Shown here piece after piece: positions 5,162 through 50,326 of a stretch of 64,000 nt of DNA. The notes beneath the pieces are model-generated. The model saw only the letters and a program-made list of their open reading frames with translations. It made no database searches and was not told the origin of the DNA. A program made the position numbers and the translations under genes. Position 1 is the stretch's first letter. Every line of letters starts with the position of its first letter. Source of the DNA: Candidatus Marinacidobacterales bacterium (lineage in GTDB: Bacteria; Acidobacteriota; Vicinamibacteria; Marinacidobacterales; DATDRI01). The DNA lies in the NCBI GenBank assembly GCA_965219415.1, contig CBDCNP010000002.1:576001-640000 (forward strand). The letters run 5' to 3'.

Positions 5162-5227
5162 GGGGGAAGAACTGCATAGAATGAACTTGCTTGGAGATCT
5201 CGTTCTGGACGAGATTCGTGGCAGAAC

Positions 5228-8400: not shown

Positions 8401-8496
8401 GTTCTTCCTCCAATTTTTTGGGTCGACCGGACCGTACCTTACACCCTTGGGCGGGTCATGAAAAGCCTGACAAACCCAGACGATGACCGACGGCGC

Positions 8497-8516
8497 GATA
8501 GGATAGGATAGGATAG
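8497..8516. repeat. (GATAG)4 microsatellite in the divergent intergenic region
   Basis: gataggataggataggatag, followed by (gac)4 just upstream of ATG 8538. Confidence 0.8.
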
Positions 8517-8537
8517 GATGAGACGACGACGACCAAC

Positions 8538-11114: not shown

Positions 11115-11363
11115 TGCGCGATGAAAACATACCTACATTGTCGTAACCTGAAGACACAAGGGCCGTTGCAAGGTCCGGCGTCCTGATGGTAGCCTTGACG
11201 CTCGGTTAGGTTGGAAAATTACTCGATGGCCCTTCCGGCCCACACGCGAATCATCGTCGTGACGAACTGGTTCGAAGAGTTGAAGCGCCGCGCACCAACA
11301 GAAGACTGAGGGGCTTGACGATACAGTGTGGAAAGCGATAGACCAAAGTCCGGGGGAAAATTA

Positions 11364-34072: not shown

Positions 34073-34140
34073 TTCCTTGCCTCATCTCTGAGGCCGCGTT
34101 ACAATCCTCGCCGCTTTTGACACCTTCGAGAATGTTCAGA

Positions 34141-35508: not shown

Positions 35509-35990
35509 GACCTAACCTGGTCTACCTTATCGGCGGCTCCCTGATCAGCTTGTTGCTCGGGATTATCGTCACCATTATTATCCCTGCGCAGGATCCGATC
35601 GGGCCTTCGCCGTTGGCCCAATCCTATTCCGAAGAAGAATTGAGGGGGCGTGATATCTATCTACGTGAGGGGTGCCATTACTGCCATACCCAGCAAGTCC
35701 GTGAGCCCGAGGCGGATCGTGGGATGGTGCGCCAGCGAGGCGATATCGGACCCGAGTCCGTACCGGGAGATTTCTACTATCAGTCCCCGGTTTTCTGGGG
35801 CACCCTCCGCCAGGGCATGGACTTGGCTCACGTCGCCTCCCGGAAGGGTATCGGAGACAACGTGGGCTGGCATGAGGACCACTTCAAAAACCCCCGGGCG
35901 TGGTCGCCCGGAACGGTCATGCCGTCCTATGACTATCTGTCTGCGGAAGAGATTCAGGCGCTCACCGCATATATATTGACGTTGAGGTAG
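35505..35990 (+). CDS. ccoO: cbb3-type subunit II (monoheme cytochrome c)
   Basis: N-terminal TM; 'GRDIYLREGCHYCHTQQVR', 'RQGMDLA', 'MPSY'; ATGA overlap with ccoN. Confidence 0.85.
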   Translation: MRPNLVYLIGGSLISLLLGIIVTIIIPAQDPIGPSPLAQSYSEEELRGRDIYLREGCHYCHTQQVREPEADRGMVRQRGDIGPESVPGDFYYQSPVFWGTLRQGMDLAHVASRKGIGDNVGWHEDHFKNPRAWSPGTVMPSYDYLSAEEIQALTAYILTLR

Positions 35991-35994
35991 GTCT

Positions 35995-36156
35995 ATGGTG
36001 TTCCCCGCAACTTGGCTGGTGCTGGCGACGGTAGCCATCATCTTGGTGCTCTTCGGCCTCGGGTACTACTGGGCGCGGAGCCACGGGCAGTTCGACGACA
36101 TCGAGATGGCGAAGTACTCCATGCTCGATAACGACAAGACCAACGATGAGCACTAA
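35995..36156 (+). CDS. ccoS: cbb3 oxidase assembly protein CcoS/FixS (53 aa, absent from the ORF track)
   Basis: MVFPATWLVLATVAIILVLFGLGYYWARSHGQFDDIEMAKYSML..; the 'W....GQFDD' signature. Confidence 0.8.
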   Translation: MVFPATWLVLATVAIILVLFGLGYYWARSHGQFDDIEMAKYSMLDNDKTNDEH

Positions 36157-36397
36157 AGGAGCGCGGGAAGTACCGCCGGGCCACGACGATTTCGGGGGTG
36201 AGGTGCTGGTCGCCAACGGAAAACCGCCGCGTTGGGTGACCAAGGTTCCCTATCTGGCAATGGCGTTGGCGCTCGGGTACTACGCGCTGGTCCAGGCCAC
36301 CGATCCGGTAAACCTGGTCTTTGCGTCACTGTTCGTGATTTGGTTTCTCTACACACCCATTGCCCAGAAGAAGGGCTGGTTTTTCATCCCGATGTGA
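36146..36397 (+). CDS. Small two-TM membrane protein in the cco operon
   Basis: Overlaps ccoS end; 'N.KPPRW' followed by two hydrophobic helices. Confidence 0.6.
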   Translation: MSTKGAREVPPGHDDFGGEVLVANGKPPRWVTKVPYLAMALALGYYALVQATDPVNLVFASLFVIWFLYTPIAQKKGWFFIPM

Positions 36398-36493
36398 CAT
36401 GCCGAGGGGAGGTGACATCGATCAAATAGATTGAACAACTGCTTAGTGTGTCTCATCTTTTTTCAATTCACGCATTGAACTTGGAGGAAAGAA

Positions 36494-36928
36494 ATGGCCG
36501 ACAGAGCCGAACAAGCAAACAAGTATATGGAAGAGAAGATGTTCTTCACTCCCCGCATGTTCAAAGTAACCAACACGCTGGCACCGGAAGTCGGGGAGCG
36601 CTTCGCCGATTTTTACGAGTCGGTGTGGGCGGACGGCAACCTGCCCCGCAAGATCAAAGAGCTAATGTTCGTCTCCATTGGCGTGGCTTACATGTCGCCA
36701 CGCTGCATCATCCACGTTCAGCCCGCCATCAAGGCCGGTGCCACGGACGGCGAGATCTTCGAGTCAGTGTCGGTCGGTATGCTGGCGGCTGGGTTCGTGC
36801 CCGGCGGACCAGGCATCCCCTATGCCTTCGAATATGCCGCCAAGACGCTGGACATTGCAGCCAAGATCCGTAAGGGCGAAGACTTCGAGTATCTCCCTGG
36901 ACCCAAGTTCGACAAGGGCGTCGGCTAA
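36494..36928 (+). CDS. Carboxymuconolactone decarboxylase (CMD/AhpD) family protein
   Basis: 'GNLPRKIKELMFVSIGV....RCIIH...AIKAGATDGEI'; GGAGG RBS. Confidence 0.85.
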   Translation: MADRAEQANKYMEEKMFFTPRMFKVTNTLAPEVGERFADFYESVWADGNLPRKIKELMFVSIGVAYMSPRCIIHVQPAIKAGATDGEIFESVSVGMLAAGFVPGGPGIPYAFEYAAKTLDIAAKIRKGEDFEYLPGPKFDKGVG

Positions 36929-36943
36929 GGACAACCGTCTCTG

Positions 36944-36990
36944 CGCAGACGGGGGTCGGACAAACTTAGGGCTCCCGTCTGCTTTCTCTT
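36944..36990 (+). terminator. GC hairpin with pyrimidine tail (possible terminator or processing stem)
   Basis: GCAGACGGG...CCCGTCTGC followed by TTTCTCTT. Confidence 0.4.
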
Positions 36991-37007
36991 CTAAGACAGA
37001 ACAACAC

Positions 37008-37814
37008 ATGAGTGAGCAGAAATTTCCTAATGACGGTCTTCTGGTCGGCTCCGCCTGGCTGGCCGACCATTTGAACGATGCGGATTTGCGACTGGTGGAA
37101 GTGACGGCGCCCGGTGCCGGATACAAGTTCGGGCATGTCGCAGGCGCCGTCTATCTGAATCTCGACGATGTGTTGACCGGGAAAGCCACCGGCGTCGAGC
37201 GAACGGTGGGCCCCATCGAAGAAGTGGCCGCCCTCCTTGGCCGACTGGGCCTTTCCCGAGACAAGACGATCGTCGTCTACGACGAGTTCGGGGGTACCCG
37301 GGCCTCACAAGCTTTTTGGCTTCTCGAGTACTTGGGCTGTGAGCAGGTGCATTCACTGGAAGGCGGCATCGAACGCTGGCTCGCCGAAAACCGCCCGACG
37401 ACGAGCGAGGCGCCCGATGTCCGAGAGGCGACCTTTACTCCCGCGATTCGTGAAGAGCGTCTCGCAACCGCGGATTGGATCTTGGATCGCCTAGAGAATT
37501 CCGATGTATCGGTCATCGACGCTCGCTCACCCGAGGAGTACGAAGACGGCCATATCCCGGGGGCCAGGAATCGATCCTGGGACAAGACTTTAGCGCGAAA
37601 AGCCTACCAGGCCTTTCGATCGCCCGAAGACCTAAAACGTGAATTCTCCGAGCTGGGTGCAAGCGAAGACAAAGAGATCGTCGCCTACTGCATGACGGGC
37701 GCGCGCTCCTCACACATCTACCTCGCTTTGCGTCTGTTGGGTTACACTCGGGTCCGGAATTATGACGGGTCCTGGACGGAATGGGGGTCCAGACGGGACC
37801 TACCAAAGGCCTGA
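37008..37814 (+). CDS. Two-domain sulfurtransferase (rhodanese/TST-MST family)
   Basis: 'GHVAGAV', 'IDARSPEEY..GHIPGA', active loop 'YCMTGARS', C-terminal 'NYDGSWTEW'. Confidence 0.92.
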   Translation: MSEQKFPNDGLLVGSAWLADHLNDADLRLVEVTAPGAGYKFGHVAGAVYLNLDDVLTGKATGVERTVGPIEEVAALLGRLGLSRDKTIVVYDEFGGTRASQAFWLLEYLGCEQVHSLEGGIERWLAENRPTTSEAPDVREATFTPAIREERLATADWILDRLENSDVSVIDARSPEEYEDGHIPGARNRSWDKTLARKAYQAFRSPEDLKREFSELGASEDKEIVAYCMTGARSSHIYLALRLLGYTRVRNYDGSWTEWGSRRDLPKA

Positions 37815-37892
37815 CAAGCCTGAAAGGCCTGACAGAGCTGACGCGTAACCGCGTTGCAAGGCCGGTAATTTCATCTTAGGAGGATTAGGAAA

Positions 37893-39065
37893 ATGGCTAC
37901 CAGTCAACTACCGCTGTTCCCGGTTACCGTCGTGGGCAGCTGGCCGAGACCCCAGTATCTCTTGGACGCGCTCAGGAAGCGCCAAAAGGGGAAGCTGAGC
38001 TTCGAAGAGTTTCAGAAAGTCGCCGACAAGGCGGTGTTGGAGCAGCTACGCTACCAAGACGAAGCGGGCGTCGACATTGTCAGCGATGGCGAGCAACGCC
38101 GAGACAATTTCTACTCGTTCGTCGTAGAGAAGCTGGACGGCGTCGAGCTGATGACCTTGGCGGATCTCATGGACCACGTCGAGGACAAAGCGGGGTTCGA
38201 CTCCATCCTGCGCAGCATGGACGCTCCGGCCTTCGGTATCAAGAACCCGACGGTAACCGGAAAGATAAAACCCAAGATGTCGCTGTCGCTCGACGAGTAC
38301 GAGTTCCTGAAACAGCATACCGACAAGCCCATCAAAATTCCCCTCCCTGGCCCATACATCTTGATCCGATCCATGTGGGTCAAAGGCGTCTCGGACAAGA
38401 TCTACCCCACCCAGGAAGATCTGGCCGTGGATATCGTCAAAATTCTTCGTGACGAGCTCATCGCCCTTCGTGATGCCGGAGTCGACTTCGTGCAATTCGA
38501 CGAACCCGTGCTCACCGACGTCGCTTTCAACCCTGCGGTGAAGGAACGCACGTTCATGTGCGCCTCGATGGCGGCGTCCTCGGGTGATCCGACCAAAGAG
38601 CTCCTGCTGGCGACGCGCATGATGAACAGTATCGTCGACGGCGTCGATGGCATCCGCACCGGCGTCCACGTGTGCCGTGGTAACTGGAGCCGCAAGGACG
38701 AGGTGTTGCTCAAGGGAAGCTATGAGCCGCTGGTCCCGACCATGATGGGGATGCATCTCGATCAGCTCGTCCTCGAGTACGCAACACCGCGTGCCGGTGA
38801 GCTCGCGGCCTTCTCGCACCATCCCAAGGAAAAGGAGATCGGACTGGGCGTTGTCAATCCTCGAACCGACGAGATGGAGTCGCCGGACTCGGTGGTCGAG
38901 CGAGTCAACGAGGCCCTGAAGTACTTCAAGCCCGAGCAGATTTATCTCAACCCCGATTGCGGTTTCGGAACCTTCGCCGAGCGGCCGATGAATCCTGCAG
39001 GGATCGCGGGAAAGAAATTGGCCGTCATCGGTGAGGCGGCCAAGAAGCTCCGTGCAAGCCACTAG
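37893..39065 (+). CDS. Single-barrel cobalamin-independent methionine synthase II family (MetE-like) Zn thiol alkyltransferase
   Basis: 'VVGSWPRP', 'DGEQRR', 'QFDEP', Zn ligands HVC(RGN), E(YA), NPDCGF; no N-terminal folate-binding barrel. Confidence 0.88.
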   Translation: MATSQLPLFPVTVVGSWPRPQYLLDALRKRQKGKLSFEEFQKVADKAVLEQLRYQDEAGVDIVSDGEQRRDNFYSFVVEKLDGVELMTLADLMDHVEDKAGFDSILRSMDAPAFGIKNPTVTGKIKPKMSLSLDEYEFLKQHTDKPIKIPLPGPYILIRSMWVKGVSDKIYPTQEDLAVDIVKILRDELIALRDAGVDFVQFDEPVLTDVAFNPAVKERTFMCASMAASSGDPTKELLLATRMMNSIVDGVDGIRTGVHVCRGNWSRKDEVLLKGSYEPLVPTMMGMHLDQLVLEYATPRAGELAAFSHHPKEKEIGLGVVNPRTDEMESPDSVVERVNEALKYFKPEQIYLNPDCGFGTFAERPMNPAGIAGKKLAVIGEAAKKLRASH

Positions 39066-39145
39066 CAGGGTGCTGAAAAATTCGCGGCACACTGCGCGAG
39101 GAGCCATCAGCTGTCCCGAAGCCGCTTGCCAGAAGGAACGGGGGG

Positions 39146-39232
39146 GGCCCCGCCGCACTGATGAAGGAGCGAACCCGCGTGGGCCGTCAAACTAGGTCGT
39201 TGCTGAAACTGGACGTGACCAGGCGGCGGGCC
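39146..39232 (+). ncRNA. Hammerhead-like three-way-junction motif, cleavage triplet missing
   Basis: Stem GGCCcCGCCGC/GCGGCGGGCC, CTGATGA (39158-64), stem II, GAAA (39205-08), stem CTGG/CCAG. Confidence 0.3.
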
Positions 39233-39315
39233 GATGAAAGTTCGCCGAGCGAAGAGCGAGGCGCCAAGCGCGCGAACGAGGAGTGAGCGCGCATTGAGCA
39301 TAGGATGAAAGAGTT

Positions 39316-39843
39316 ATGGAAGAATCGACCAAAATTAACGGGTTGGACATTGAGGAGACCCGGGAAGCCATCAAGACCGTAAGCGCCGTGGAGGGGGCAC
39401 CGAAGGCCCCCAAGAAATCACGGTGCAAATGGTTGACCGGTCTCAAATTCAGGACCTACGTACGGAACCACGTCTTCCTCGTCGATGAGCCCGCACACCT
39501 CGCGGGCGAGGATGAAAGCCCTAACTCGATGGAGTATGTGCTGGGAGCCTACGCCGCGTGTTTGGCCACCGGCTTCGTTCTCAACGCCAGCCAGAAGGGT
39601 ATCGAAATCCACAACCTCGAAGTGGCCGTGGACTCGACTCAGAACAACGTATTCACGTTTCTGGGTCTGGGGGGCGAAGGACACGCCGGGTTCGACACTA
39701 TCAACGCCAAGCTCTTCGTTCAGGCCGATGCGGACGAGGCCACGCTAAAAGACGTTTGGGCCCAGACCGTGGACACCTCTCCGGTGCACAACTCTCTGGC
39801 CCGGCCGGTGACCATCAATCCTGAGGTCGAGATCATTCCGTAG
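39316..39843 (+). CDS. OsmC/Ohr-family protein
   Basis: 'VDEPAHLAGEDESPNSMEYVLGAYAACL', 'TSPVHNSL..PV'; single active Cys. Confidence 0.88.
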   Translation: MEESTKINGLDIEETREAIKTVSAVEGAPKAPKKSRCKWLTGLKFRTYVRNHVFLVDEPAHLAGEDESPNSMEYVLGAYAACLATGFVLNASQKGIEIHNLEVAVDSTQNNVFTFLGLGGEGHAGFDTINAKLFVQADADEATLKDVWAQTVDTSPVHNSLARPVTINPEVEIIP

Positions 39844-39915
39844 CTCCTAGGTCAGATTTCGGATCGCCGCCTGGCCTGCCTCGGACCCCCAAGGTCTGGT
39901 CTGCCTGACCCGAAA

Positions 39916-41316
39916 CTACCCTCCGGAAGCCTGGGGAGTGAGGGTGTATCCGAGAGCTTCGGCTGCCTTTTGTAAACCGTTGATGTGGTTTTGGCGAAAA
40001 CGGTCTTCGAAGGCGCGTTCGCCGATATCGATGTAATCGTGGCCATATTTGAGCATGCGGAAGACGAGCTGGGCGAGCTTGCGTGCTGTAGCAAAGACGG
40101 CGGTTTTGCCATCTTTACGGCGAGCAGTGCGGCGATAGTAAGCGCCTAGGGCGGTCTTGGAGCGGGAGAGAGATACAGCGGCCATACGTAAGGCACCGGC
40201 GATGCGATTGGAGCCGGCGCCGTTGCGGCGTTTGGAGAGTTGTTTACCGCCGGAGATAGGGCGACGTGGGGCGAGATGTAGCCATGAGACGAAGAATTTT
40301 TCGAAAGGGAAATCAGAGAGGTCGAATCCGATCTCGGTGAGGACAATGGCGGCGGTGGTTGGACTGATTCCGTCGATCCTGGTGAGGTCGCATCCAGCAA
40401 AACGCCACAGCTCGTTGCGCAGTTCGCTCTCGCCCCGATGCTGCATGTCGTATCGTTTTTGCGGATTTGGATGAGCTGGCACGTTGTGGTGTCTGCGTTG
40501 TGGCGGCTGGAGTTCGATGAGCACTTCAAGGATACGCTGGTCGAACAGTTCGACTTCGGCTTGTAGCGCATCGTAGAGACGCAGAGCCGATGCGAGGTTG
40601 AAAAGATGCTCGTCACGCCAAGTGCCGGTAAGATGCTCGGCGATCTCCTCTTCGCTCTTCTTGCAGCGTTGGTCACGAAATGCAGCCAGCTTTGACGGGT
40701 CACGCTCACCATCAACGATGGCGCGCACGATGAGCATGCCTGTGACGCCGGTAATGTCGGTCACTGCACGATGGACCTGAACGTTCATTTGGTCCAGAGA
40801 TTTCTGTATCCATTGAATAGCTCGACTACACTGCTCGATGAGGCTGCAACGCTGTCGGTGAAGCGAGCGTAGGCGGCAGATCGACTCACCAGGACGAAAC
40901 GAGCCTCGCAACAGACCACAGCTGTGTAACAGCTGCAGCCACTGACAGTCATGCATATCGGTTTTACGCCCGGGGACGTTTTTTAACTGTCGAGCATTTA
41001 CCAGCACCACTTCAAGACCCCGCGATTCAAGCAACTCATAAATCGGAATCCAATAGACGTAGGTGCTTTCCATCGCAACCGATTCGACTCCTTGCTCGAT
41101 GAGCCAATCCCCCATTTGATTCAAAGACGGTGTCGTTGGGGAAAACACCCGCACGTTCACTTTACCGTCCGACAAGGCCGGCCCACATACCCAATGCTCA
41201 CGACTGCCAATATCGATGCCTGCTACCTTCGACCTTGTCACCGGCAGCGATTGCGGCGACAGATTCTTCGACTTCCTACCACTCTTTTTCACGCGCTTGT
41301 GCATCACTGACCTCAC
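39916..41316 (-). CDS. IS110-family DEDD transposase/recombinase
   Basis: 'AGIDIG', 'MESTYVYW', 'KTDMHDCQWL', 'ISGGK' (catalytic Ser), 'ATARKLA'; intact ORF. Confidence 0.92.
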   Translation of the reverse strand: MRSVMHKRVKKSGRKSKNLSPQSLPVTRSKVAGIDIGSREHWVCGPALSDGKVNVRVFSPTTPSLNQMGDWLIEQGVESVAMESTYVYWIPIYELLESRGLEVVLVNARQLKNVPGRKTDMHDCQWLQLLHSCGLLRGSFRPGESICRLRSLHRQRCSLIEQCSRAIQWIQKSLDQMNVQVHRAVTDITGVTGMLIVRAIVDGERDPSKLAAFRDQRCKKSEEEIAEHLTGTWRDEHLFNLASALRLYDALQAEVELFDQRILEVLIELQPPQRRHHNVPAHPNPQKRYDMQHRGESELRNELWRFAGCDLTRIDGISPTTAAIVLTEIGFDLSDFPFEKFFVSWLHLAPRRPISGGKQLSKRRNGAGSNRIAGALRMAAVSLSRSKTALGAYYRRTARRKDGKTAVFATARKLAQLVFRMLKYGHDYIDIGERAFEDRFRQNHINGLQKAAEALGYTLTPQASGG

Positions 41317-41329
41317 ATGTATTTTGTGA

Positions 41330-41490
41330 GTGAAGGCTCCGGCCCGAGATGGCGATTGTTAGGATTCTGACCCTGGGGAGTGCTTCCGTTCAAAGCCTCG
41401 CCAATGATAGGGAGCCGGATCGGACCCAAGCTCGTCCTGGGGCATTAGTGCACCAGTGGTGCTACGGGGTTTAGCTGCCGGGGCCTTCAC
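41330..41490 (-). ncRNA. Candidate IS110 bridge RNA in the non-coding upstream end
   Basis: Closed by a 14-bp IR (41330-43 / 41477-90); contains short copies of both junction sequences. Confidence 0.5.
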
Positions 41491-41540
41491 CGACAACCCT
41501 TTTATCAGCTCAGGTAGTTTCTCGCCTGATAGGGCCGGCC

Positions 41541-42655
41541 TCACGAAGGCCGCCGAAGCTCGACTACACCCTCACTCCCCAGCACTGCGAGAGGTCGTTT
41601 CGGGTCAAGTGCTGTCCAACCGAATCCCCGGCGAACGTACCGGTCTTCGCCGGACGCAGGATCACGTGATCCAAGATTGGAAACGGTCGCACGCTGTAGG
41701 ACTCCAGAGTCTCGGGAAATCATGCCGGCGCTGGCTCGCGGTTCGGTCTGGAAGCCAGACGGTTTTCTCTGAGAACGTCTCTTTAGGGGCAAGGGCTTTT
41801 CGATGACACCCAATGGCCCTTCCCAAGTCAGCCGGTTGGGAGCCCAGCCCTTGACCTTCAATCGCCCTCCGGTGATCGCCGCGTGACAGACCGCGCAGAG
41901 CGTGTGGAGATTCCAGGTCTCATCGGGACCGCCACGAGCCCGCGGAATGATGTGATTCGCGGTTAGAGCGGTTCGATTACTGCACCCGGGCCGGGTGCAC
42001 TTCCATCCGTCCCGCTCCGCGACTTTCCGAACATAGCCACCGTCAGTTTCCGGACCGTCTCCGAATGCAGGCGTTGTTGCATACCCACAAAGCGCCTCCG
42101 CGCACATGAGGTCGAAGACTTCGATGTCGCTCAGTGTTTTCCCCGCCAATCGCTCGAGGGCTTCCCGCGCCTGCTCCCAAGCTTCGACGCGTTCGCCCTT
42201 CGAGAACAAAGAAGAGGGATTTCCTCGTCGTCGGAGGCTGTTTCCTTTTCACTTCCTGCTCGAGCTGACGATTGCTCATGCTGTTACAGCGGTCGAGCCA
42301 CTTGGCCTCGGTCTTCGGTGTCGCGACTTTCACGACTTCCCTCGCCTTGGTCCAAGGAATGTCCCCTCGCCGGAAGGCCTTCTTCAACCTAGGCAACTCT
42401 TCGAAACGCTCCGCCATGTGCAACAGCGAGCGCGTCTTTCGATCCTCGAAGCCGAGACTTTCGCGGGCGTAGTCGACGGTCGAGGCAAAGCCGTACCTGA
42501 GATAAAGCCGTCGGGTCTCGACTTCCTGAAGATAGAAGCACAAGACGGACTCCACGCGGCGATGCACGCGGGCCGCGGCGACGAGGCCCCGATCGACCTC
42601 GCTCGGGGGGAAGACCTTTCTTCATTTCGAGAGCGGCTGCAGCAGACAGGGACAT
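41541..42655 (-). pseudogene. DUF222-like/HNH endonuclease protein, frameshifted
   Basis: 'LYLRYGFASTVDYARESLG', 'IPWTKAREV', HNH 'ERDGWKCTRPGC....HIIPRARGGPDETWNLHTLCAVCH'. Confidence 0.8.
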
Positions 42656-43072
42656 GACACTAACTCCTTTTAAAATGAATGGCTTAACAAGAAATCTTCA
42701 CACTTCAATATAGGAGTATGTTAGGTGAAAGTCAAGAGTATTTAAGTTGTGTAATTATCTGAAAACAAAAGGATTAGAAGAAAAATCGGATGGTGAGAGA
42801 TCTGGGCGTTACCTCTTAACTTGCTGATAAAAAGCCACTTGCCTACTGCTTCGCGTCAAGACCGGATGTGATCGAAGGTCCGAGTCCCCCGAGCCGCCCG
42901 GGGTGTTCTGCTTCCCCTCTGGTCAAGTCCTATCGGCTAGGACAAACCGAAGCTTCCGCTACACCTTCAGTCCCCTATACCTGCTGGACGGTCGTTCCGC
43001 CGCGGCTAGCCTCATGGCAACTCCCCATCTTGGCAGCAAGCCAGTTCAATCTTGTAAAATACCCAGTTGACG

Positions 43073-43966
43073 ATGAAGAACCTGGTTCCACTGCCGTATC
43101 GCCGTGTCTCCGTCCAGCCTTACCAAGGCCAGATGACGGAGCCAGCCATCCGCGCCCACCTGATGGGCCGCGAGACCTATCGGCGCACGGATTTCGTCGT
43201 CCTCAGGCAGGGGCAACAGACCGCGGTCGTCGAGGTCACTGCCCCCGACCGAGAGAGCCTCTTCAGCCCCATCGATTCCGTCCGCATCGTGGCCCTGCCC
43301 GAAACATGTGTCTTCGTCGAAGCCTCAGAGACCGACCCGGCCAACCCGTCCTCCCTCGCCGCCAAGGCGCACGAGCTCGGAATCGAAGGCGAGCAAACAC
43401 TCGTGGTACGCGGCAAGTACGAGCACGTCGGTTTCATTCATCACCCCGAACCAATGGTCATCCGTGTCGTGGAGGTCTCTCCGCCCGAGCCACCCAAATT
43501 GTTCGACCTCGCCCAACGCGTACTCGGTTACGCGGAGCTTCCACCGATCCGGTTGGAGCTCACACGGATCGACCTGATCGAGCTCGCCGAAGGCCACTCT
43601 CCTTCCTCCTTCTTAGTGCCTTGCCGCTCTGGAGGACTGGAAGCGCTCAAGGCGCCGGTGCACTTTCTGGACGAGCGCCCCGAGCGGCACGACTGGACGA
43701 TGATCGGATGCGAACGCAGTTTGCAGTTCCACCGCCATTTCTACGGCGACGAGCCGCCCCGCATAGAGCTCTGCCCTCGCCAACTGGCGGGCAACAACGA
43801 CACACCAACGCTACTCAAATGCTGCCTGCTCGAGTTCGACACCGAGCTCGACGGAAGCACGGTGGCGGCGCCGTGGGGTGCCGACTTGGCGATGGTGGAA
43901 AAGGCCATCCGCCAACTCGTGGCGGTCGCCGAGCCCGCACCCGCCGGCGCATCTAAAGTTCCCTGA
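43073..43966 (+). CDS. Cys-rich hypothetical protein, first gene of the comA operon (possible XcbA-like / metal-binding)
   Basis: Long intact ORF with GC-rich third positions; Cys motifs PCR, GCERS..FH, CP, KCCL; 25 nt upstream of comA. Confidence 0.75.
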   Translation: MKNLVPLPYRRVSVQPYQGQMTEPAIRAHLMGRETYRRTDFVVLRQGQQTAVVEVTAPDRESLFSPIDSVRIVALPETCVFVEASETDPANPSSLAAKAHELGIEGEQTLVVRGKYEHVGFIHHPEPMVIRVVEVSPPEPPKLFDLAQRVLGYAELPPIRLELTRIDLIELAEGHSPSSFLVPCRSGGLEALKAPVHFLDERPERHDWTMIGCERSLQFHRHFYGDEPPRIELCPRQLAGNNDTPTLLKCCLLEFDTELDGSTVAAPWGADLAMVEKAIRQLVAVAEPAPAGASKVP

Positions 43967-43991
43967 CCGCAATCACCGGAGGAAAGCCTTC

Positions 43992-44828
43992 ATGACCAAA
44001 GCCTGGACTGCCATCTTTCCCGAACTGGCGGCCCGCTCGCGCAAGCCGCGCACTCGCGGGGTGACGATGCTCCTCGACAAGTGCCAGGGCCCCTCGGCCA
44101 CCGAAGATCTCTTGGCGATGTCGGGTGACTACATCGACTTCTGGAAGATGTCCTACGGGACATCGGCTCTCCTCGACGATGGTTTCCTACGTCGTAAGAT
44201 CGAAACCATCGGCCAGCACGACATCATCGTGCATCCCGGCGGTACATTGGCCGAATACGCGATCATGCAAGGTGTCTGCCGAGAATACGTCCGACACTGC
44301 CAGACCCTCGGCTTCACCGGCGTCGAGATTTCGGATGGCACCATCGAGCTCGCGCCCGGTGCCCGACGGGATGCGATTCGGTACGCACGGGATCTCGGCT
44401 TAACCGTTGTCACCGAGGTGGGCAAGAAAGACCCCAACGAACAACCTCCGGTGGAGCTACTCGCAGAGCAAGCACTGGCCGACTTCGATTCGGGAGCCTC
44501 CTGGGTGATCGTCGACGCGCGGGAGTCTGGCCGAGGAGTCGGGGTATTCGATGCGGATGGCTCCGTCCGCGAGGACGCGGTGGATGCCATGGTCGACATC
44601 CTAGAAGGCCATCTCGATAAGATGATCTGGGAGACACCGCTCAAGAAACAGCAGGAGTACTTCGTCATTCGCTTCGGGCCGCACATCGGGCTGGGCAACA
44701 TCCAACCGCGCGACGTCCTGGCGCTGGAAGCGATGCGCACCGGGATCCGCTTCGAGACGTTCCACGCTTTTGCCAAGAAGCTCCTCGAGGAAGCCCAGCA
44801 GGCTCGAGAGACGGCGGACGAGGGATAA
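43992..44828 (+). CDS. comA: Phosphosulfolactate synthase (ComA/XcbB)
   Basis: 'RKPRTRGVTMLLDK', 'YIDFWK..YGTS', 'PGGTLAE', 'VEISDGTI', 'TEVGKK', 'ARESG', 'WETP', 'LGNI', 'LEAMRTG.R'. Confidence 0.92.
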   Translation: MTKAWTAIFPELAARSRKPRTRGVTMLLDKCQGPSATEDLLAMSGDYIDFWKMSYGTSALLDDGFLRRKIETIGQHDIIVHPGGTLAEYAIMQGVCREYVRHCQTLGFTGVEISDGTIELAPGARRDAIRYARDLGLTVVTEVGKKDPNEQPPVELLAEQALADFDSGASWVIVDARESGRGVGVFDADGSVREDAVDAMVDILEGHLDKMIWETPLKKQQEYFVIRFGPHIGLGNIQPRDVLALEAMRTGIRFETFHAFAKKLLEEAQQARETADEG

Positions 44829-44837
44829 AGGATCGCG

Positions 44838-46415
44838 ATGGTGTTTGGCGAACCCCCGTCCGACGAGCTCATCCGAACCGCGTACGCACGCGAAGCGGGC
44901 GACACGGCTATCCTTTGTAAGGGGATGAGCCTGGCCGACATCGCCCACGTCGTGGGGCTGGTCGAATCCAAGATCATTCCCCGCCAAGCGGGAGGCGAGC
45001 TCCTGTGGGCATTGCTGGAAATCCATCCTTCACCGCCGATGGATTTTGCTGTCGATCCCGCCCGCGGTGATTCCTACTCCAACCGGGAGTCCTACCTGAG
45101 AATGCTTACCCCCTCGACCGGGTGGCTGTCGGTGGGCCGAGCGAGACGTGAGTCCACGACCACCGGTTATCGAATCACCGTCCGAGAGCGGCTGCTGAGC
45201 TTGGCCGGCGCACTCGGCGACTGCGCTACGGCGGCACTCGAGCAATGTGACGCGCATCGAGCGACTCTCTTCCCCGACTACACCTACCTGCAGCCGGCTC
45301 AACCGACGGTGTTCGCGCATTACCTGCTCACGTTCGTCTACCCAATGCTCCGGGACCTCGAGCGTCTCGGGGGCGCCTTCGCGCGTACCAACGTTTCGCC
45401 GGCCGGGTGTGGGAGCGTCAACGGAAGCCGACTCCCCTTGGACCGCGAAGCGCTGTCCGCCATGCTCGGCTTCGATCGCCCCATCCCGCATGCACGCGAC
45501 GCCATGTGGCAGGCGGACGGTCCGATCGAAAACGCCGCCCTCATCACTGGAGCGCTGGTCAACCTCGACCGCTTGGCCGAAGACCTGCAGATCTTTTCGA
45601 CATCGGAGTTCGGGCTCGTCGAGTTGGCCGACCGCCACGCGCGCGCGAGCGTGATCATGCCGCAGAAGAAAAACCCGTACTCGCTCGCCTATCTCCGCGG
45701 GCTCGCCGGGGCCTCCATCGGCACTCTCGCTGCGATGGCTGCGGTCGCGAAGACACCTTCCGGACAGATCGACAATCGCATGTTCGCCTATGGCGACGTA
45801 CCACGGGCGCTCGATCACGCGGCGGACGCAGCACGCTTGATGGCCGACGTGCTCCGAGGGATCACGGTGAAGACGGATGTCGCCGAGCGTCGAGCCGCTC
45901 AAGACTTTCTCGGTGCGACCGATTTAGCGGAAGTCATCATGATCGAGTGCGAGATCGACTATAAGACGGCGCACCGCATCGTGGCTCGGGCCATCCGCGA
46001 AGCGCTCGACTCGGGCGAATCGGGGTTGTCCGTGAAACGGCTGGAAGCGAGCGCCGAAGCCACCGTTGGAAAACAGCTCGGTCTCTCGAAGAACAGAATT
46101 CGCGAATCGCTCGACCCGGCGAGTATCGTCGCGACACGCAGCGGCATCGGTGGCGCAGCGAGCGAATCGGTGGGTGAGATGATCGCCGAATGCAGGAAGG
46201 GCCTGAAGGAAAATGAAACGTGGCGTCTCACCACGGGAAGGAAGCTCGTCGAGGCCGAAACTCGGCTGGGAATGAAGGCCACGGTACTGAAGATCGTGCC
46301 CGCCGAGGGGGACGGCTCATCTGGAGCCGAGCGAGCCGAATCGGATTCTTGGGAAAAGGAGTTCGAAGATCTTCCCAAGATGCCTCCGGGGCGCCGCCGG
46401 TTTCCAGCCGAATGA
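44838..46415 (+). CDS. Argininosuccinate-lyase-like (aspartase/fumarase superfamily) enzyme, candidate XcbC
   Basis: 'YTYLQPAQP', 'SPAGCG', 'RLAEDL', variant signature 'SVIMPQKKNP', 'TDLAE'; follows comA. Confidence 0.85.
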   Translation: MVFGEPPSDELIRTAYAREAGDTAILCKGMSLADIAHVVGLVESKIIPRQAGGELLWALLEIHPSPPMDFAVDPARGDSYSNRESYLRMLTPSTGWLSVGRARRESTTTGYRITVRERLLSLAGALGDCATAALEQCDAHRATLFPDYTYLQPAQPTVFAHYLLTFVYPMLRDLERLGGAFARTNVSPAGCGSVNGSRLPLDREALSAMLGFDRPIPHARDAMWQADGPIENAALITGALVNLDRLAEDLQIFSTSEFGLVELADRHARASVIMPQKKNPYSLAYLRGLAGASIGTLAAMAAVAKTPSGQIDNRMFAYGDVPRALDHAADAARLMADVLRGITVKTDVAERRAAQDFLGATDLAEVIMIECEIDYKTAHRIVARAIREALDSGESGLSVKRLEASAEATVGKQLGLSKNRIRESLDPASIVATRSGIGGAASESVGEMIAECRKGLKENETWRLTTGRKLVEAETRLGMKATVLKIVPAEGDGSSGAERAESDSWEKEFEDLPKMPPGRRRFPAE

Positions 46416-46439
46416 CCGCTCCCGTCAGAGCCTAACGTC

Positions 46440-47819
46440 ATGCCATCTCACATTTCCGATTCGCTGATCTACCGGGGTTCATGGGGAACCGAGGAGACGC
46501 GTGCGATATTCGACGACGTGCCCCGAACCCGCGCGTGGCTCGAGATCCTGGCGGTGCTCGCGGAAAGCCAAGCGGAGGTGGGTCTCATCCCCGCCGACGA
46601 TGCCCAGAAAGTGGCGCGCGCCTGCCGAGAGATGACGCTCGACGCCGAGTTCTTCGAGGAGGTCCGCAAGGGTTTCGAGGAAACGAATCACACCACGCTC
46701 GGCCTCATTCGCGCCGTCCAGAAGCGTTGCCCGGAAGGGTCCGGCGAATGGGTCTACTACGGTGCCACCGTGCAAGACATCGCCGACACCTGGACCATGA
46801 TGGCGGTCGCGCAAGTCTGGTCCATCGCGTTCCGAGAGTCGAGAGCGCTCGAAGAGAATCTTCTTCGACTGGCGGAGACACACAAAAACACGGTCATGGC
46901 CGGTCGCACGCACGGCCAGCCGGGACTACCTATCACCTTCGGTTTCAAGGCAGCGGTTTGGGCGAGCGAAACTCGACGCCACATCGCGCGCCTCAAAGAC
47001 ATTAGACATCGCCTCGGAGTGGGGCAACTTGCGGGCGGCGTAGGCAGCATGTCCTCGTTGGGCCCGCAGGCGTTCACGCTGCAGGAAAAGTTCTGTTCTC
47101 GTCTGGGGCTTCAATCGCCGGATATCTCATGGACCACCGCGCGGGACGTTCTGGTGGAGTGGTTCCAGCTGCTCACTTTGATATCAGGTACCGCGGACAA
47201 GATGGGGCATGAGATCTACAACCTGCAGCGTCCCGAGATCGGCGAGGTCAGTGAAGGTTTCGTACCGGGAACGGTGGGGAGCATCACCATGCCACACAAG
47301 CGTAACCCCGAGATCGCGGAGCACCTGGGAACGCTGGCAAGAGTGATCCGACACAACACGGCTCTCCTGGCTGAATCTCAAGTGCACGACCACGAGCGGG
47401 ACGGACGGGCTTGGAAATCGGAGTGGGCGGTTCTCGCCGAGACCTCGATGGCGGCGGCGAAATTGCTCGAGTTAACCAACACAATGACCGAACATCTCGA
47501 CGTCCACGCCGACCGGGCGCTCGCTAATCTGGAAGCGAGCCAAGGCTTCGTGCTGTCAGAAGCCGTCATGCTGAAGCTTGCGGAGTATGTTGGCAAGCAA
47601 AGTGCCCACACGCTGGTGTACGAGACCGCGATGAAGGCACACGACGAGGGGCGTCCGCTAAAGGACGCCATTCTGAAGAATGATGCCATCTGCAAGCACC
47701 TGTCCGCGGAGGCCATCGAGGATCTGTTCGACTACCGGCGACATGCGGGTTTCTGTAGCGAGCAAGTCGATCGGGTGCTGGAGCGGGCGAGGAAGGAGAG
47801 GGAGAGCGACTCGGAATGA
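46440..47819 (+). CDS. Adenylosuccinate-lyase-like enzyme, candidate XcbD
   Basis: 'GATVQDI.DT', 'GRTHGQ..LPITFG.K', variant signature 'GSITMPHKRNP', 'HERD', C-terminal ADSL domain. Confidence 0.85.
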   Translation: MPSHISDSLIYRGSWGTEETRAIFDDVPRTRAWLEILAVLAESQAEVGLIPADDAQKVARACREMTLDAEFFEEVRKGFEETNHTTLGLIRAVQKRCPEGSGEWVYYGATVQDIADTWTMMAVAQVWSIAFRESRALEENLLRLAETHKNTVMAGRTHGQPGLPITFGFKAAVWASETRRHIARLKDIRHRLGVGQLAGGVGSMSSLGPQAFTLQEKFCSRLGLQSPDISWTTARDVLVEWFQLLTLISGTADKMGHEIYNLQRPEIGEVSEGFVPGTVGSITMPHKRNPEIAEHLGTLARVIRHNTALLAESQVHDHERDGRAWKSEWAVLAETSMAAAKLLELTNTMTEHLDVHADRALANLEASQGFVLSEAVMLKLAEYVGKQSAHTLVYETAMKAHDEGRPLKDAILKNDAICKHLSAEAIEDLFDYRRHAGFCSEQVDRVLERARKERESDSE

Positions 47820-48235
47820 AAACCTATTTCTACATCGGGCTGGCACTGATTCCACTCACCTTCGGAGCGTGTGGCAACGGAGCCGGCTCCAAGAGTGCCG
47901 AAGCCAACATCAAACCCCTCCCTATCGGCAACCCGGCAGACGGAGAAAGCGTCTTCATGGGTACGTGCATCAAGTGCCACGGCAAAGATGCAACCGGAAT
48001 CGAAGGTTCAGGAACGAACCTGACCATCAGCGATTTCGTCAGAAATCATGCGGATGCCGAGTTGGTGGACTACATCAAGACCGGACGCCCGATGAACGAC
48101 CCACTCAACACGACGGGCATCGCCATGCCCCCGTACGGCGCCAATCCGATGCTAACCGATCAGGATCTCGCAGACGTCGTTTCGTACCTCAGGACCGTCC
48201 TTAGAACCTCGACCATGGAAAACAACGACAAGTGA
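47816..48235 (+). CDS. Monoheme cytochrome c, probable lipoprotein
   Basis: Lipobox-like FGAC; CIKCH heme motif; distal 'AMPPYG'; ATGA overlap with the upstream lyase. Confidence 0.85.
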   Translation: MKTYFYIGLALIPLTFGACGNGAGSKSAEANIKPLPIGNPADGESVFMGTCIKCHGKDATGIEGSGTNLTISDFVRNHADAELVDYIKTGRPMNDPLNTTGIAMPPYGANPMLTDQDLADVVSYLRTVLRTSTMENNDK

Positions 48236-48251
48236 CGAAGAGACAACCAAT

Positions 48252-49247
48252 ATGTCGACACCCTCTCGTTTCGAGCTAGCCATTCTACCTACACCCCTCG
48301 TCGAGGCCTCGCGTTTATCGCGAGCTCTCGAGGGTCCCCGAATCCTTATCAAGCGCGACGACCTGACGGGTTTCGGTTTCGGTGGCAACAAAGTACGTGG
48401 ACTCGAGTATTCCATCGCCGACGCCACCGCCAAAGAAGCCGATGTTGTCGTCACCGGTGCGGGACCGCAATCGAATCACATCCGCGCCACCGCGGCCGCG
48501 GCGCGGGCAGCGGGGCTCGATGTGGTCGCCGTCATGCACGGCGAGCGACCCGCCGAGACGCAGGGCAATCTTCTTCTCGATCAATGGCTAGATGTCGAGA
48601 CGCGATTCACAAATGATCCCGACCGCAGCCTCTTGGATCAAAAGATCGAGGAAGTCGCGGAGGAGCTCCGGCAATCGGGGCGACGACCGTATGTCATTCC
48701 TCGGGGAGGTTCTTCGGCGATCAGTGCCTGCGGTTACGTGCAGTGTGCCCGCGAATTGGGAGACCAGCTCGTAGATCTAGGTGCTCGACCGCACTGGCTG
48801 ATCCTGGCCACCGGAGGCGGCGGCACGCATGCGGGCCTCCTCGCCGGTTCGAAGATCTACGATGCGCCGTATCGCATTCTCGGTGTCACCGTAAGCCGCC
48901 CGGCCGATGAGTGCGAGGAGCGGATCGCACACCTGGCCCGCGAGGCGGCACAGCTCTTCCGACCTCAAGGGGAAGCCATCCACATCACCCCCGACGACAT
49001 CTCGGTCCGCGACGGTTTTATCGGTGACGGGTATGGGATCCCCTCACCTGAGGGCATCGAAGCGATCCGCCTGCTGAGCCGGACAGAGGGGTTGTTCTTG
49101 GATCCGACTTACACCGGTAAGGCCATGGCGGGGCTCATCGGCGAGATCCGATCGGGGCGCATTAGAAAAGGCGAGACGGTCGTCTTCGTTCACACCGGCG
49201 GAGAGCCTGCCCTCTTTGCCCACCCGGAGATCGCGACGCGTTCATGA
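48252..49247 (+). CDS. PLP-dependent D-cysteine desulfhydrase/ACC deaminase family protein, candidate XcbE
   Basis: 'PTPL', 'IKRDDL...FGGNKVR', 'QSNH', 'TEGLFLDPTYTGK', 'FVHTGG'. Confidence 0.9.
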   Translation: MSTPSRFELAILPTPLVEASRLSRALEGPRILIKRDDLTGFGFGGNKVRGLEYSIADATAKEADVVVTGAGPQSNHIRATAAAARAAGLDVVAVMHGERPAETQGNLLLDQWLDVETRFTNDPDRSLLDQKIEEVAEELRQSGRRPYVIPRGGSSAISACGYVQCARELGDQLVDLGARPHWLILATGGGGTHAGLLAGSKIYDAPYRILGVTVSRPADECEERIAHLAREAAQLFRPQGEAIHITPDDISVRDGFIGDGYGIPSPEGIEAIRLLSRTEGLFLDPTYTGKAMAGLIGEIRSGRIRKGETVVFVHTGGEPALFAHPEIATRS

Positions 49248-50326
49248 AGAAGAGCCTGCCCGCTGCGACGTACCTGACTGCCACGCTCTTACTAGTCTTA
49301 CTCACAGGGCTCACCGGCGGCGCGCCGCGGGAAGAGCCTCACGCCATCTGGGAAGCCGACAACCCGATCCAGCCGATCCCCGCGAGTCCTCTGGGCATAG
49401 ATATACGGCTCCATCGCCTGAAGGACCCCCCCACTCCCGAAACGGTGCGACTCGGTCGATGGCTTTTTTTCGATGAACGACTCTCTGCCGATGGGACGGT
49501 CTCCTGCGGGACCTGCCATCGTCCGGAGAACGCGTTTTCCGAGCCGAAACCGGTGTCGACCGGAGTTCATGGGCAAACGGGAACCCGCAAGGCCCCGACG
49601 ATCGTAAACCTGTCGAGAAGCCTCTACCCATCTCTCTTTTGGGACGGTCGAGCCGCAACGCTCGAAGCACAGGCTCTGCTCCCGATCGTCAATCCGATCG
49701 AAATGGGAAACAGCGTGGAGGCGGCTCTCGAAACACTTCGCTCCATCGAGGGTTACCGGAAGTATTTCGAGGAAGCCTTTGGATCACGCGAGGTCACCCC
49801 ACAACGCGTAACACGTGCCATCGCCGATTACGAGAGGACACGACGGAGTGGCAACTCGCCTTGGGACCGATGGAGCGCCGGAGATGCGAGCGCGCTTTCC
49901 GATGCGGCGCAGTTGGGAAGGCAAATCTTCTTTGGAAGGGGACGCTGCACGCGTTGCCATAACGCGCCGGATTTCACCGACGACGAGTTCCACAACGAAG
50001 GCATCGGATGGGTTCCCGAGACACAATCCTTCCTCGACGAGGGTCGCTTCGCGGTGAGCAAATTGGGCACCGATCGGGGCGCGTTCAAGACTCCCACTCT
50101 ACGGGACGTCGGCCTCCACCCGCCCTTCATGCACGACGGTTCCATCGCAACCCTCCGAGAGGTCGTTGAACACTACAACCGAGGGGGAAACCCCAATCCC
50201 TACCTGGATCCCGTTATCGAACCGCTCGACCTGAAGGAGCCGCAGCTCGAAGGGCTCGTCGCGTTCCTCGAAGCGCTCGCCGGCGAAAGCTACCGGGACG
50301 AGGCGCCCGCAACTTTCCCCAAATGA
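49244..50326 (+). CDS. Diheme cytochrome c peroxidase/MauG-family protein
   Basis: Two CxxCH motifs (CGTCH, CTRCH), 'FWDGRA', 'NPIEMG', 'FKTPTLR', 'MHDGS'; ATGA overlap. Confidence 0.9.
   Translation: MKKSLPAATYLTATLLLVLLTGLTGGAPREEPHAIWEADNPIQPIPASPLGIDIRLHRLKDPPTPETVRLGRWLFFDERLSADGTVSCGTCHRPENAFSEPKPVSTGVHGQTGTRKAPTIVNLSRSLYPSLFWDGRAATLEAQALLPIVNPIEMGNSVEAALETLRSIEGYRKYFEEAFGSREVTPQRVTRAIADYERTRRSGNSPWDRWSAGDASALSDAAQLGRQIFFGRGRCTRCHNAPDFTDDEFHNEGIGWVPETQSFLDEGRFAVSKLGTDRGAFKTPTLRDVGLHPPFMHDGSIATLREVVEHYNRGGNPNPYLDPVIEPLDLKEPQLEGLVAFLEALAGESYRDEAPATFPK

Follow-up and report, generated by a model that had tools for sequence, protein, structure and literature searches.

A MesD-like sulfur cassette beside the coenzyme M biosynthesis genes of an acidobacterium: a probable modular island

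The stretch analysed here (the window, 64,000 nucleotides of contig CBDCNP010000002.1 from a Candidatus Marinacidobacterales bacterium, GenBank assembly GCA_965219415.1) carries on its + strand a complete xcb operon, the gene set described for coenzyme M (CoM) biosynthesis in Xanthobacter, and upstream of it a triad of genes for a two-domain rhodanese, a short MetE-like zinc enzyme and an OsmC-like protein. Our preferred reading, to which we give a probability of about 55%, is that an independent, MesD-like sulfur-relay cassette has come to lie 5' of xcbA within a modular island. The island spans about 16.6 kb (33682-50326) and would be built of three units that also occur apart: a divergent cbb3-type CcoN/CcoO pair with a small membrane protein and a one-cysteine CMD-family protein; the rhodanese/short-MetE/OsmC-like cassette, which would belong to a widespread, uncharacterised family; and xcbA-comA(xcbB)-xcbC-xcbD-xcbE with an extra cytochrome c, joined by a MauG-like gene here only. 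The zinc enzyme would be closest to the core methionine synthase MesD and, judging from its conserved Ser16, Glu67 and Asp203, would bind an amino-acid thiol such as homocysteine. Its extra Cys223 is proposed to be served, in a sulfur relay, by the cysteines of the rhodanese and of the one-cysteine OsmC-like protein, and this chemistry would not need CoM. We propose that the cassette adjoins xcb, and is almost certainly co-transcribed with it in relatives, because both have been assembled into one transferable sulfur-metabolism island; use of CoM by the MetE-like enzyme is unlikely. The novelty lies in finding, beside a complete xcb operon in an acidobacterium, a methionine synthase relative that is widespread and unstudied and has one more cysteine, which may be selenocysteine in relatives. 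The job of CoM in these bacteria is a question worth pursuing, and the island is a concrete place to ask about it and about the chemistry of the cassette together.

The genes of the island, all on the + strand, follow in this order; the DNA inserted between the OsmC-like gene and xcbA is given further below.

33682-35508, + strand: divergent cbb3-type oxidase subunit I, CcoN-like, probable true start ATG 34132 (Pfam COX1 272.5 bits; NCBIfam ccoN 288 against 583)
35505-35990, + strand: short CcoO-like mono-haem subunit with a CHYCH motif (Pfam FixO 96.7 bits; NCBIfam ccoO 86.7 against 200)
36146-36397, + strand: conserved 83-aa protein with a hydrophobic C-terminal half (tblastn: 8 of 80 xcbA loci, also G001, G003 and G006)
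36494-36928, + strand: CMD-family protein with a single Cys71-x-x-His74 (C-I-I-H; Pfam CMD 34.5 bits)
36678-37814, likely start ATG 37008, + strand: two-domain rhodanese, active-site Cys in the loop CMTGARS (Pfam Rhodanese 137 bits in two stretches)
37893-39065, + strand: short single-barrel MetE-like zinc enzyme, 390 aa (Pfam Meth_synt_2 113 bits)
39316-39843, + strand: OsmC-like protein, one-cysteine variant (C82; Ser155; Pfam OsmC 63.3 bits)
43073-43966, + strand: XcbA-family protein, DUF7714 (NF052538 446.5 bits against 150; 57-67% identical to the Py2 copy)
43992-44828, + strand: phosphosulfolactate synthase ComA/XcbB (TIGR03849 298.8 bits against 280; 48% identical to Py2; GGAGGA before the ATG)
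44838-46415, + strand: XcbC-like enzyme of the aspartase/fumarase superfamily (NF052535 569.5 bits against 575, just below; 44% identical to Py2)
46440-47819, + strand: XcbD, 3-sulfopropionylcysteine synthase (NF052536 652.5 bits against 600; 51% identical to Py2)
47816-48235, + strand: mono-haem cytochrome c within the operon, with an N-terminal signal-like stretch (Pfam Cytochrome_CBB3 42 bits)
48252-49247, + strand: XcbE-like pyridoxal-phosphate enzyme (NF052537 398.6 bits against 450; CuyA model 332 bits; 49% identical to Py2)
49244-50326, + strand: MauG/MbnH-like di-haem peroxidase, whose presence in the block varies (Pfam CCP_MauG 190 bits)

The open reading frame (ORF) list, Pfam and NCBIfam bear out every gene, position and strand named in an earlier, sequence-only reading of the window, which had singled out four co-oriented sulfur/thiol genes (CMD, two-domain rhodanese, MetE-like and OsmC-like; 36494-39843, + strand). 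The conserved block begins upstream of the CMD gene, with the CcoN/CcoO pair and the small membrane ORF (33682-36397); the latter, the 83-aa protein, had no Pfam or NCBIfam match.

The units of the island travel both together and separately. We compared the source genome (G000, 96% complete) with its family (G001, of the same genus, to G007; completeness 73-96% over the set), with a sample of 400 other Acidobacteriota genomes scanned for MetE-like homologues and XcbA, with the best 80 of 161 confirmed xcbA stretches from bacterial and archaeal contigs (one genome per species), and with the best 80 of 498 metagenome relatives of the MetE-like gene (55-91% identity, retrieved with the clade alignment as query). 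For the last set the neighbourhood was taken as 3 kb, and 38 of the 80 loci had at least 2 kb on both sides. All three units stand together in the window, G001, G003, G006, L026 and L108, and the CcoN-like gene is syntenic in each of these relatives. Locus L026 is from the Anaerolineae, so that the full window-type block is found in a second phylum, and in two further Anaerolineae loci (L024 and L031) the rhodanese, MetE-like and OsmC-like genes lie beside xcbA; MetE-like identity there is 70-78%. Synteny of the cassette with comA clusters, on which the sequence-only reading had depended, thus exists in two phyla. Within the family, four genomes (G000, G001, G003 and G006) have CcoN, the MetE-like gene and XcbA, and the other four (G002, G004, G005 and G007) gave no match to any of the three. 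The unit of presence and absence is the whole island, since the oxidase gene follows the same pattern as the other two. The perfect co-occurrence of MetE-like gene and XcbA in the family (four genomes with both, four with neither) was considered as a sign of functional coupling and rejected for this reason: the whole island comes and goes, and the pattern is not independent evidence for a link between the enzyme and CoM.

Beyond the family the units separate. A MetE-like homologue (41-60% identity) is present in 7 of the 400 sampled genomes of the phylum, and XcbA was found in none of them. Among the 80 xcbA loci, the window-type MetE-like gene occurs in five, two of which are the window's own relatives, and the same five carry the rhodanese; weak rhodanese matches in L034, L036 and L038 were left uncounted, as the over-long query ORF (from 36678) overlaps the CMD gene in another frame, and N-terminal rhodanese matches in the flanks of the relatives are the same query artefact. 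This CcoN occurs in 6 of the 80 and CMD homologues in 10. Three Anaerolineae loci (L030, L036 and L038) have the oxidase and CMD unit, with the CMD gene followed directly by xcbA and no triad; L033 likewise lacks the triad and has a second CMD gene and FolD between CMD and xcbA. Seen from the MetE-like gene, 67 of the 80 metagenome loci have an OsmC-like gene within 3 kb, as do all 38 with at least 2 kb on each side; a rhodanese is present in 33 of the 80, and xcbA in three (L108, L109 and L114), or 1 of the 38. Among the other genes that recur nearby are those for an acyl-CoA-dehydrogenase-like protein and a periplasmic binding protein. The triad occurs without the other units in G054/L012, L112, L113, L116 and L117. 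The core of the triad occurs with CcoN/CcoO and CMD in L120 and L121, where no xcbA was seen in the up to 3.3 kb downstream of CMD, and in these two loci the oxidase/CMD unit and the cassette are thus linked without any involvement of CoM genes. Their gene order (2916-11884: OsmC-like, S-adenosylmethionine-dependent methyltransferase, OsmC-like, O-methyltransferase, MetE-like, OsmC-like, CcoN, CcoO, CMD) differs from that of the window. The neighbourhood survey that had been suggested for the MetE-like gene and xcb therefore came out in two parts: the block does recur in insert-free relatives and in Anaerolineae, but xcbA stands at only 3 of the 80 MetE-like loci.

The residues of the MetE-like protein point the same way. 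We aligned (MAFFT) 14 members of the window clade, 43 epoxyalkane:CoM transferases (EaCoMTs) and 11 sequences of a second MetE-like family associated with xcb. EaCoMT orthologues were called at 60% or more identity to Xanthobacter XecA, with the annotated '2-hydroxypropyl-CoM lyase' of pXAUT01 and EtnE of Nocardioides JS614 and Mycolicibacterium NBB4 as anchors. In E. coli MetE the zinc ligands are H641, C643, E665 and C726, and S433, E484 and D599 bind substrate (Price et al., 2021, PMC7857596). The putative zinc ligands of the window protein (H259, C261, E295 and C356) align with the ligands of all 43 EaCoMTs and are kept in all three groups. At the positions of S433, E484 and D599 the window protein has S16, E67 and D203, and this Ser/Glu/Asp set is kept in 14 of 14 window-clade members and in 78-80 of the 80 metagenome homologues. 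The EaCoMTs have Asn (43 of 43), Arg (41 of 43) or Lys (2 of 43), and Asp there, and the second family has Gly/Ala, Gln/Ala and Ile (11 sequences). As read from this alignment, the pocket for the amino-acid end of homocysteine is remodelled in the two MetE families that plausibly handle CoM and is intact in the window protein. The second family itself adjoins xcb and EaCoMT genes in Ktedonobacteria and Burkholderiales (L046 790-1839, L047 5512-6552, L051 ~6765, L069 ~904 and L078 ~3664); it is about 30% identical to XecA, keeps the zinc ligands and has all three homocysteine-site residues replaced.

The window protein also carries a cysteine, Cys223, inside a family-specific insertion (approximately residues 208-240). 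It is invariant in the 80 metagenome homologues, and EaCoMT lacks the insertion that bears it. In two acidobacterial relatives, L015 and L020, an in-frame stop aligns exactly with C223; the stop of L015 is TGA and the L020 gene has two TGA codons. This suggests a Cys/Sec pair at position 223, with possible selenocysteine in L015 and L020, and such a pair would mark a reactive residue. A paralogue of the MetE-like gene elsewhere in the source genome (G000:C3:811163-812161; L107 6167-7159), about 28% identical, has an in-frame TGA at the zinc-ligand cysteine of its His-x-Cys motif ('FHL*RGN'), and contains either a selenocysteine at a metal ligand or is a pseudogene.

Of the characterised relatives, MesD is the nearest. 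The best solved relative of the window protein is 3RPD (102 bits), which is MesD (Price et al., 2021, PMC7857596). Like MesD, whose partner is MesX, the window protein is a short MetE without the folate-binding half and keeps all seven zinc and homocysteine residues. Further like MesD, members of its family coexist with MetH in aerobes and appear to depend on a dedicated partner protein. MetH is present in all five genomes checked (G000, G001, G003, G054 and G425), and full-length MetE was found in none of the five; there is therefore a plausible niche for a B12-independent enzyme resembling methionine synthase, a niche similar to the one that Price et al. argue for MesD (PMC7857596). The partner is different, however: an OsmC-like protein, with or without the rhodanese, takes the place of DUF1852 (MesX). 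No DUF1852 gene is among those of the block, and the protein is not classed as a MesD. It differs too in reaching only 102 bits to 3RPD and in having Cys223, possibly selenocysteine in relatives, within its family-specific insertion.

The comparison with EaCoMT (XecA/EtnE) is less close. Both are single MetE-type barrels of ~370-390 aa with a His-x-Cys...Glu...Cys site, and both occur beside xcb genes. Yet the window protein is 23% identical to XecA and separated from EaCoMT by long, well-supported branches, and it falls short of orthology, known EaCoMTs being 47-82% identical to each other. It has Ser16 and Glu67 where EaCoMT has Asn and Arg/Lys, residues whose family-defining status is our reading of the alignment and not a published criterion. 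In a quick IQ-TREE maximum-likelihood tree with SH-aLRT support (rows with internal stops, namely L015, L020 and L107, and metagenome rows whose best match was under 330 aa were left out), EaCoMTs and the second MetE-like family lie on distant branches from the window protein. All 10 xcb-linked MetE-like copies fall in one clade of 20 rows (SH-aLRT 98), and the other 10 rows of that clade have no known link to xcb; five of its members (L113, L116, L117, L120 and L121) show 3.4-7 kb beyond the MetE-like gene without xcbA.

In the proposed relay the partner proteins would act as small cysteine carriers. The rhodanese keeps its active-site Cys in 31 of 32 homologues, all of which cover the position, and scores 133.9 bits against 250 with the 3-mercaptopyruvate sulfurtransferase model. 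In the OsmC-like protein C82 is kept in 54 of 66 homologues and Ser155 in all 63 that cover the position, and C37 is not conserved; a canonical-looking OsmC homologue in L033 has Cys at the Ser155 position. The CMD protein keeps Cys71 and His74 in 9 of 9 homologues whose alignment covers them, and has one Cys only. The active site of AhpD is a CxxC pair, and canonical AhpD and OsmC/Ohr peroxidases use two cysteines. By that measure the CMD protein is not of the AhpD type, and neither it nor the OsmC-like protein is obviously a peroxidase, since each has one conserved Cys. The suggestion that CMD and OsmC recycle the thiol of CoM accordingly finds no support: both are one-Cys variants lacking the two-Cys arrangement, and in L030, L036 and L038 the CMD gene stands beside xcbA without the triad.

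The earlier reading had further held that the four genes are split from the comA operon by mobile DNA only, and here it was right. In the insert-free relatives G003, G006 and metagenome locus L108, which we used to define the junctions, blastn against the window joins 39843 directly to 43069, and one contiguous + strand block appears, as predicted. The inserted and repeated DNA of the source genome is as follows.

39844-43068 (3,225 bp), no strand: inserted DNA separating the OsmC-like gene from xcbA (39843 joined to 43069 in blastn of G003, G006 and L108)
39904-41543, - strand: IS110-family element, multi-copy, with its transposase at 39916-41316 (NF033542 248.5 bits against a cut-off of 140)
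41541-42209, - strand: HNH endonuclease ORF within a single-copy inserted segment (Pfam HNH 37.2 bits)
39060-39312, no strand: dispersed 253-nt repeat resembling a miniature inverted-repeat transposable element, intergenic, between the MetE-like and OsmC-like genes

Contigs of four public DNA runs were compared with the window for depth and junctions. Depth over the IS110 element is ~188-199 against ~29 in the flanks (run X2), or ~6-7x, and contigs break at 39904 and 41543; one contig of run X10 extends from 39841 into IS110. The segment around the HNH gene (41621-42736) has the depth of its flanks and is 81% identical to DNA at the same site in G001 (blastn). The 253-nt repeat reaches a depth of 283 against ~26-30 (run X2) and has at least 50 matches in G000, of which three cover nearly its whole length at 82-87% identity; G001 lacks it here, the spacer between its MetE-like and OsmC-like genes being ~22 nt. 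Three intrusions of mobile or repeated DNA have thus struck the island in the source genome: the HNH element, IS110 and the 253-nt repeat. No joint spanning the 39844-43068 insert was present in the contigs of the four runs, so these contigs show no version of the strain without the insert. In G006 and L108, 2 nt lie between the stop codon of the OsmC-like gene (TAG) and the start codon of xcbA (GTG), and in G003 the spacer is 78 nt; the block in the insert-free relatives is almost certainly a single predicted transcript. Consensus scans for promoters and terminators gave about as many hits as shuffled sequence (3 against 3.9 and 17 against 14.2). The cassette has a G+C content of 0.56-0.59 and the stretch xcbA-xcbC one of 0.62-0.64, a hint of different origins that is too weak and was not used.

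What the sequence-only reading made of this arrangement was a new CoM system, in which the MetE-like enzyme is an S-alkyl or S-methyl transferase of CoM, the rhodanese gives sulfite or persulfide, CMD and OsmC recycle the thiol, and CoM serves as a carrier or detoxification thiol in these aerobes. It drew on the association of MetE-family zinc transferases with xcb clusters, which we can confirm, since an EaCoMT orthologue occurs in 42 of the 80 xcbA loci and 11 sequences form the second family. Also on its side are the tight adjacency to xcbA, conserved in two phyla, the intact zinc ligands, the confinement of xcb-linked copies to one clade, the lack of any other known CoM-dependent enzyme among those found in G000, and the known CoM-type methyltransferases that occupy the same upstream slot in sister loci. 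Against it stand the 23% identity to XecA and the distant position in the tree; the retention of S16 and E67, lost in both xcb-associated MetE families, with a Glu in the thiol pocket that we infer would suit an amino group better than a sulfonate; the 77 of 80 metagenome loci in which no xcbA was seen, together with the 7 of 400 acidobacterial genomes that have the homologue and the 0 of 400 that have XcbA; the five loci of the same clade (L113, L116, L117, L120 and L121) with 3.4-7 kb beyond the gene and no xcbA; and the one-Cys character of the CMD and OsmC-like proteins. Alkylation of CoM by the MetE-like enzyme is not supported, given its distance from XecA, its preserved Ser/Glu/Asp pocket and a family that mostly lives without xcb, and the mechanism of alkylation and recycling as a whole is not supported because of the distribution of the cassette, the pocket residues and the presence and absence of the island as one piece. 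We regard it as unlikely; it keeps some weight because of the tight junction, the single clade, the absence of another visible CoM user and the analogy of the slot. Methyl-CoM as a methyl donor to homocysteine was also considered and set aside by reasoning, a thioether not being an activated donor.

Several of these observations also count against the modular island with an independent MesD-like cassette that we prefer. Wherever they co-occur, the triad lies immediately 5' of xcbA (window, G001, G003, G006, L024, L026, L031, L108, L109 and L114), and this constant order with the 2-nt spacer of G006 and L108 looks like a functional operon. The membership of all xcb-linked copies in one clade makes a clade-specific link to CoM possible. 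Elimination keeps the MetE-like enzyme in play, as nothing else recognisable as an enzyme that uses CoM was found in G000. At other xcb loci, zinc thiol methyltransferases of the MtaA/CmuA family fill the place 5' of xcbA, so that position too argues for a role that uses CoM. Finally, the homocysteine-site argument comes from sequence alignment, and the sulfur-relay step is one that we infer.

The third unit is a known kind of system, as its NCBIfam scores and its 44-67% identity to the characterised proteins of Xanthobacter autotrophicus Py2 indicate. The xcbABCDE genes of that strain (Wu et al., 2022, PMC9457059) comprise the same five families in the same order, and the xcb genes of the window, judged by homology, most likely make CoM as in Xanthobacter. 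It qualifies as a genuine xcb cluster, and its host, an acidobacterium of the class Vicinamibacteria, is an unexpected one. Unlike that of Py2, the window block lacks genes for 2-KPCC or short-chain dehydrogenase/reductases (SDRs), and no EaCoMT was found in the host; it has a cytochrome c between xcbD and xcbE and a MauG-like gene after xcbE, and its XcbC and XcbE score below the NCBIfam cut-offs. Xanthobacter XcbA is described as the [2Fe-2S] reductase of the last step of CoM synthesis (PMC9457059). XcbC is an argininosuccinate-lyase-like phosphate eliminase, and XcbD a cysteine adduct synthase that resembles adenylosuccinate lyase. The XcbA family comprises 1,920 protein clusters at E <= 1e-10, the named sources among the top matches all being Chloroflexota/Anaerolineales. 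Clusters of etnE and CoM genes in methanotrophs and Proteobacteria (PMC11507031) are likewise reported to place xcb on laterally transferred islands in non-classical alkene degraders; unlike them, the window has no true EaCoMT and no 2-KPCC/SDR, CoA-transferase or ligase genes. In literature searches, subscription journals aside, we found no paper on xcb in Acidobacteriota or Anaerolineae, nor on this cassette.

The operon makes room for two further accounts. ComA takes sulfite and XcbD takes cysteine, according to Wu et al. (PMC9457059), and the triad could be a recruited accessory module that serves CoM biosynthesis, its rhodanese freeing sulfite from thiosulfate for ComA and the relay or the MetE-like enzyme handling sulfur amino acids, cysteine being the co-substrate of XcbD. 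The substrates of the two enzymes, the conserved active-site Cys of the rhodanese, and the triad's constant place 5' of xcbA, on the same strand with short spacers, are all in keeping with this. But at 75 of the 80 loci neither a rhodanese nor the triad is present within 10 kb of xcbA, so xcb is not generally dependent on the triad, and most cassettes lie far from any xcb, which leaves such a supply role quite improbable. The other account has the xcb-like operon yield a modified or oxidised sulfonate instead of free CoM, a product on which the cytochrome c, the MauG-like peroxidase and the neighbouring oxidase would act. It could explain why XcbC (569.5 against 575) and XcbE (398.6 against 450) fall below their cut-offs and why haem proteins are embedded in these operons, namely the cytochrome c (kept in G001, G003, G018, L026 and L108 as well as the window) and a P450 (L026, L027 and L034). 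We consider it very unlikely: the operon has the full set of five Xcb orthologues, in canonical order and 44-67% identical to characterised proteins, and conservation of the MauG-like gene does not extend even to the genus, the gene having no counterpart at that position in G001 and no match in the 80 xcbA loci or the flank of G003.

Under the reading of a modular island, then, the use of CoM in this genome has to be sought elsewhere, and our searches of G000 returned little. They gave no EaCoMT (the best XecA match is the MetE-like gene itself, at 32.9 bits), no MtrH, no RACo and no alpha subunit of methyl-CoM reductase (MCR). The only gene of the URO-D family (442 bits) is presumably HemE, and no MtaA-type methyltransferase was seen. 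A soluble di-iron monooxygenase (SDIMO; PF02332) match is only marginal, at 25.3 bits; nor was an SDIMO alpha subunit found within 10 kb in the 80 xcbA loci. A complete xcb operon in a genome in which EaCoMT, MtaA-type methyltransferase and MCR were not found, together with an XcbA family seen in 161 stretches and 1,920 clusters, indicates that CoM probably has at least one bacterial role not yet described. That Vicinamibacteria and some Anaerolineae make CoM while lacking every known CoM-dependent enzyme, and that their missing user is the xcb-linked subclade of the short-MetE cassette itself, with its zinc site and Cys223 fed by the rhodanese and an OsmC-like carrier, in a new oxygen-linked CoM thiol system with the cbb3-type oxidase, the cytochrome c and the one-Cys CMD, is a distinctly doubtful idea.

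The surveys brought up other contexts for xcb. The 42 xcbA loci with an EaCoMT fall within L042-L101 (for example L046 1984-9920, L066 5115-8140 and L045 5674-20693); their hosts are Burkholderiales, Alphaproteobacteria, Methylococcales, Ktedonobacteria and others, and the EaCoMTs are mostly 68-82% identical to XecA. They usually also hold 2-KPCC-like, SDR, CoA-transferase and ligase genes, and SauS-like genes too. This class has largely been described already for methanotrophs (PMC11507031).

In 9 or 10 Anaerolineales loci of the 80, xcbA is accompanied by MtaA/CmuA-family methyltransferases, a corrinoid protein, a RACo activase and an MtrH-like gene. Such a corrinoid methyltransferase system surrounds the xcb operon in L034 (1156-12853), L035 (2145-10024) and L025 (8640-12883), and also in L024, L028, L029 and L039; in L033 and L036 the corrinoid methyltransferase genes lie downstream of xcbE. 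Up to three MtaA/CmuA-family (URO-D) genes are present, together with the corrinoid protein, the RACo activase and a cobalamin adenosyltransferase, and in L034, L025 and L035 the MtrH-like gene sits between comA and xcbC. This context suggests CoM as a methyl carrier in bacteria; literature searches found no paper on an xcb-linked corrinoid methyltransferase system in Anaerolineales.

Decayed copies of the island were found in two genomes of another family of the order. G018 (L021 16592-19399 and L022 1-7146) has a truncated CcoN, a DDE transposase, xcbA, comA, a frameshifted xcbC, xcbD, the cytochrome c and a second DDE transposase, without xcbE, and G026 has a truncated CcoN (G026:C1:3641493-3642263) and no XcbA match.

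Further genes in or near the operon were noted at L026 13328-14620, L027 5130-6461 and 9744-11166, L034 14577-15806 and 17186-18628, and L111 3-596. A cytochrome P450 gene stands between xcbC and xcbD in three Anaerolineae loci (L026, L027 and L034), and one lies just upstream of the MetE-like gene in L111. Two of the three, L027 and L034, also have a pair of DUF1326 and PpoB2 (copper chaperone) genes between xcbD and xcbE. On the Xanthobacter plasmid pXAUT01 (L103 16786-17642), the XcbA-like stretch directly 5' of comA gives matches in two different reading frames and has no CDS in the PLSDB gene table; it may be a frameshifted copy or an annotation gap, the xcbA of the published work bearing another locus tag.

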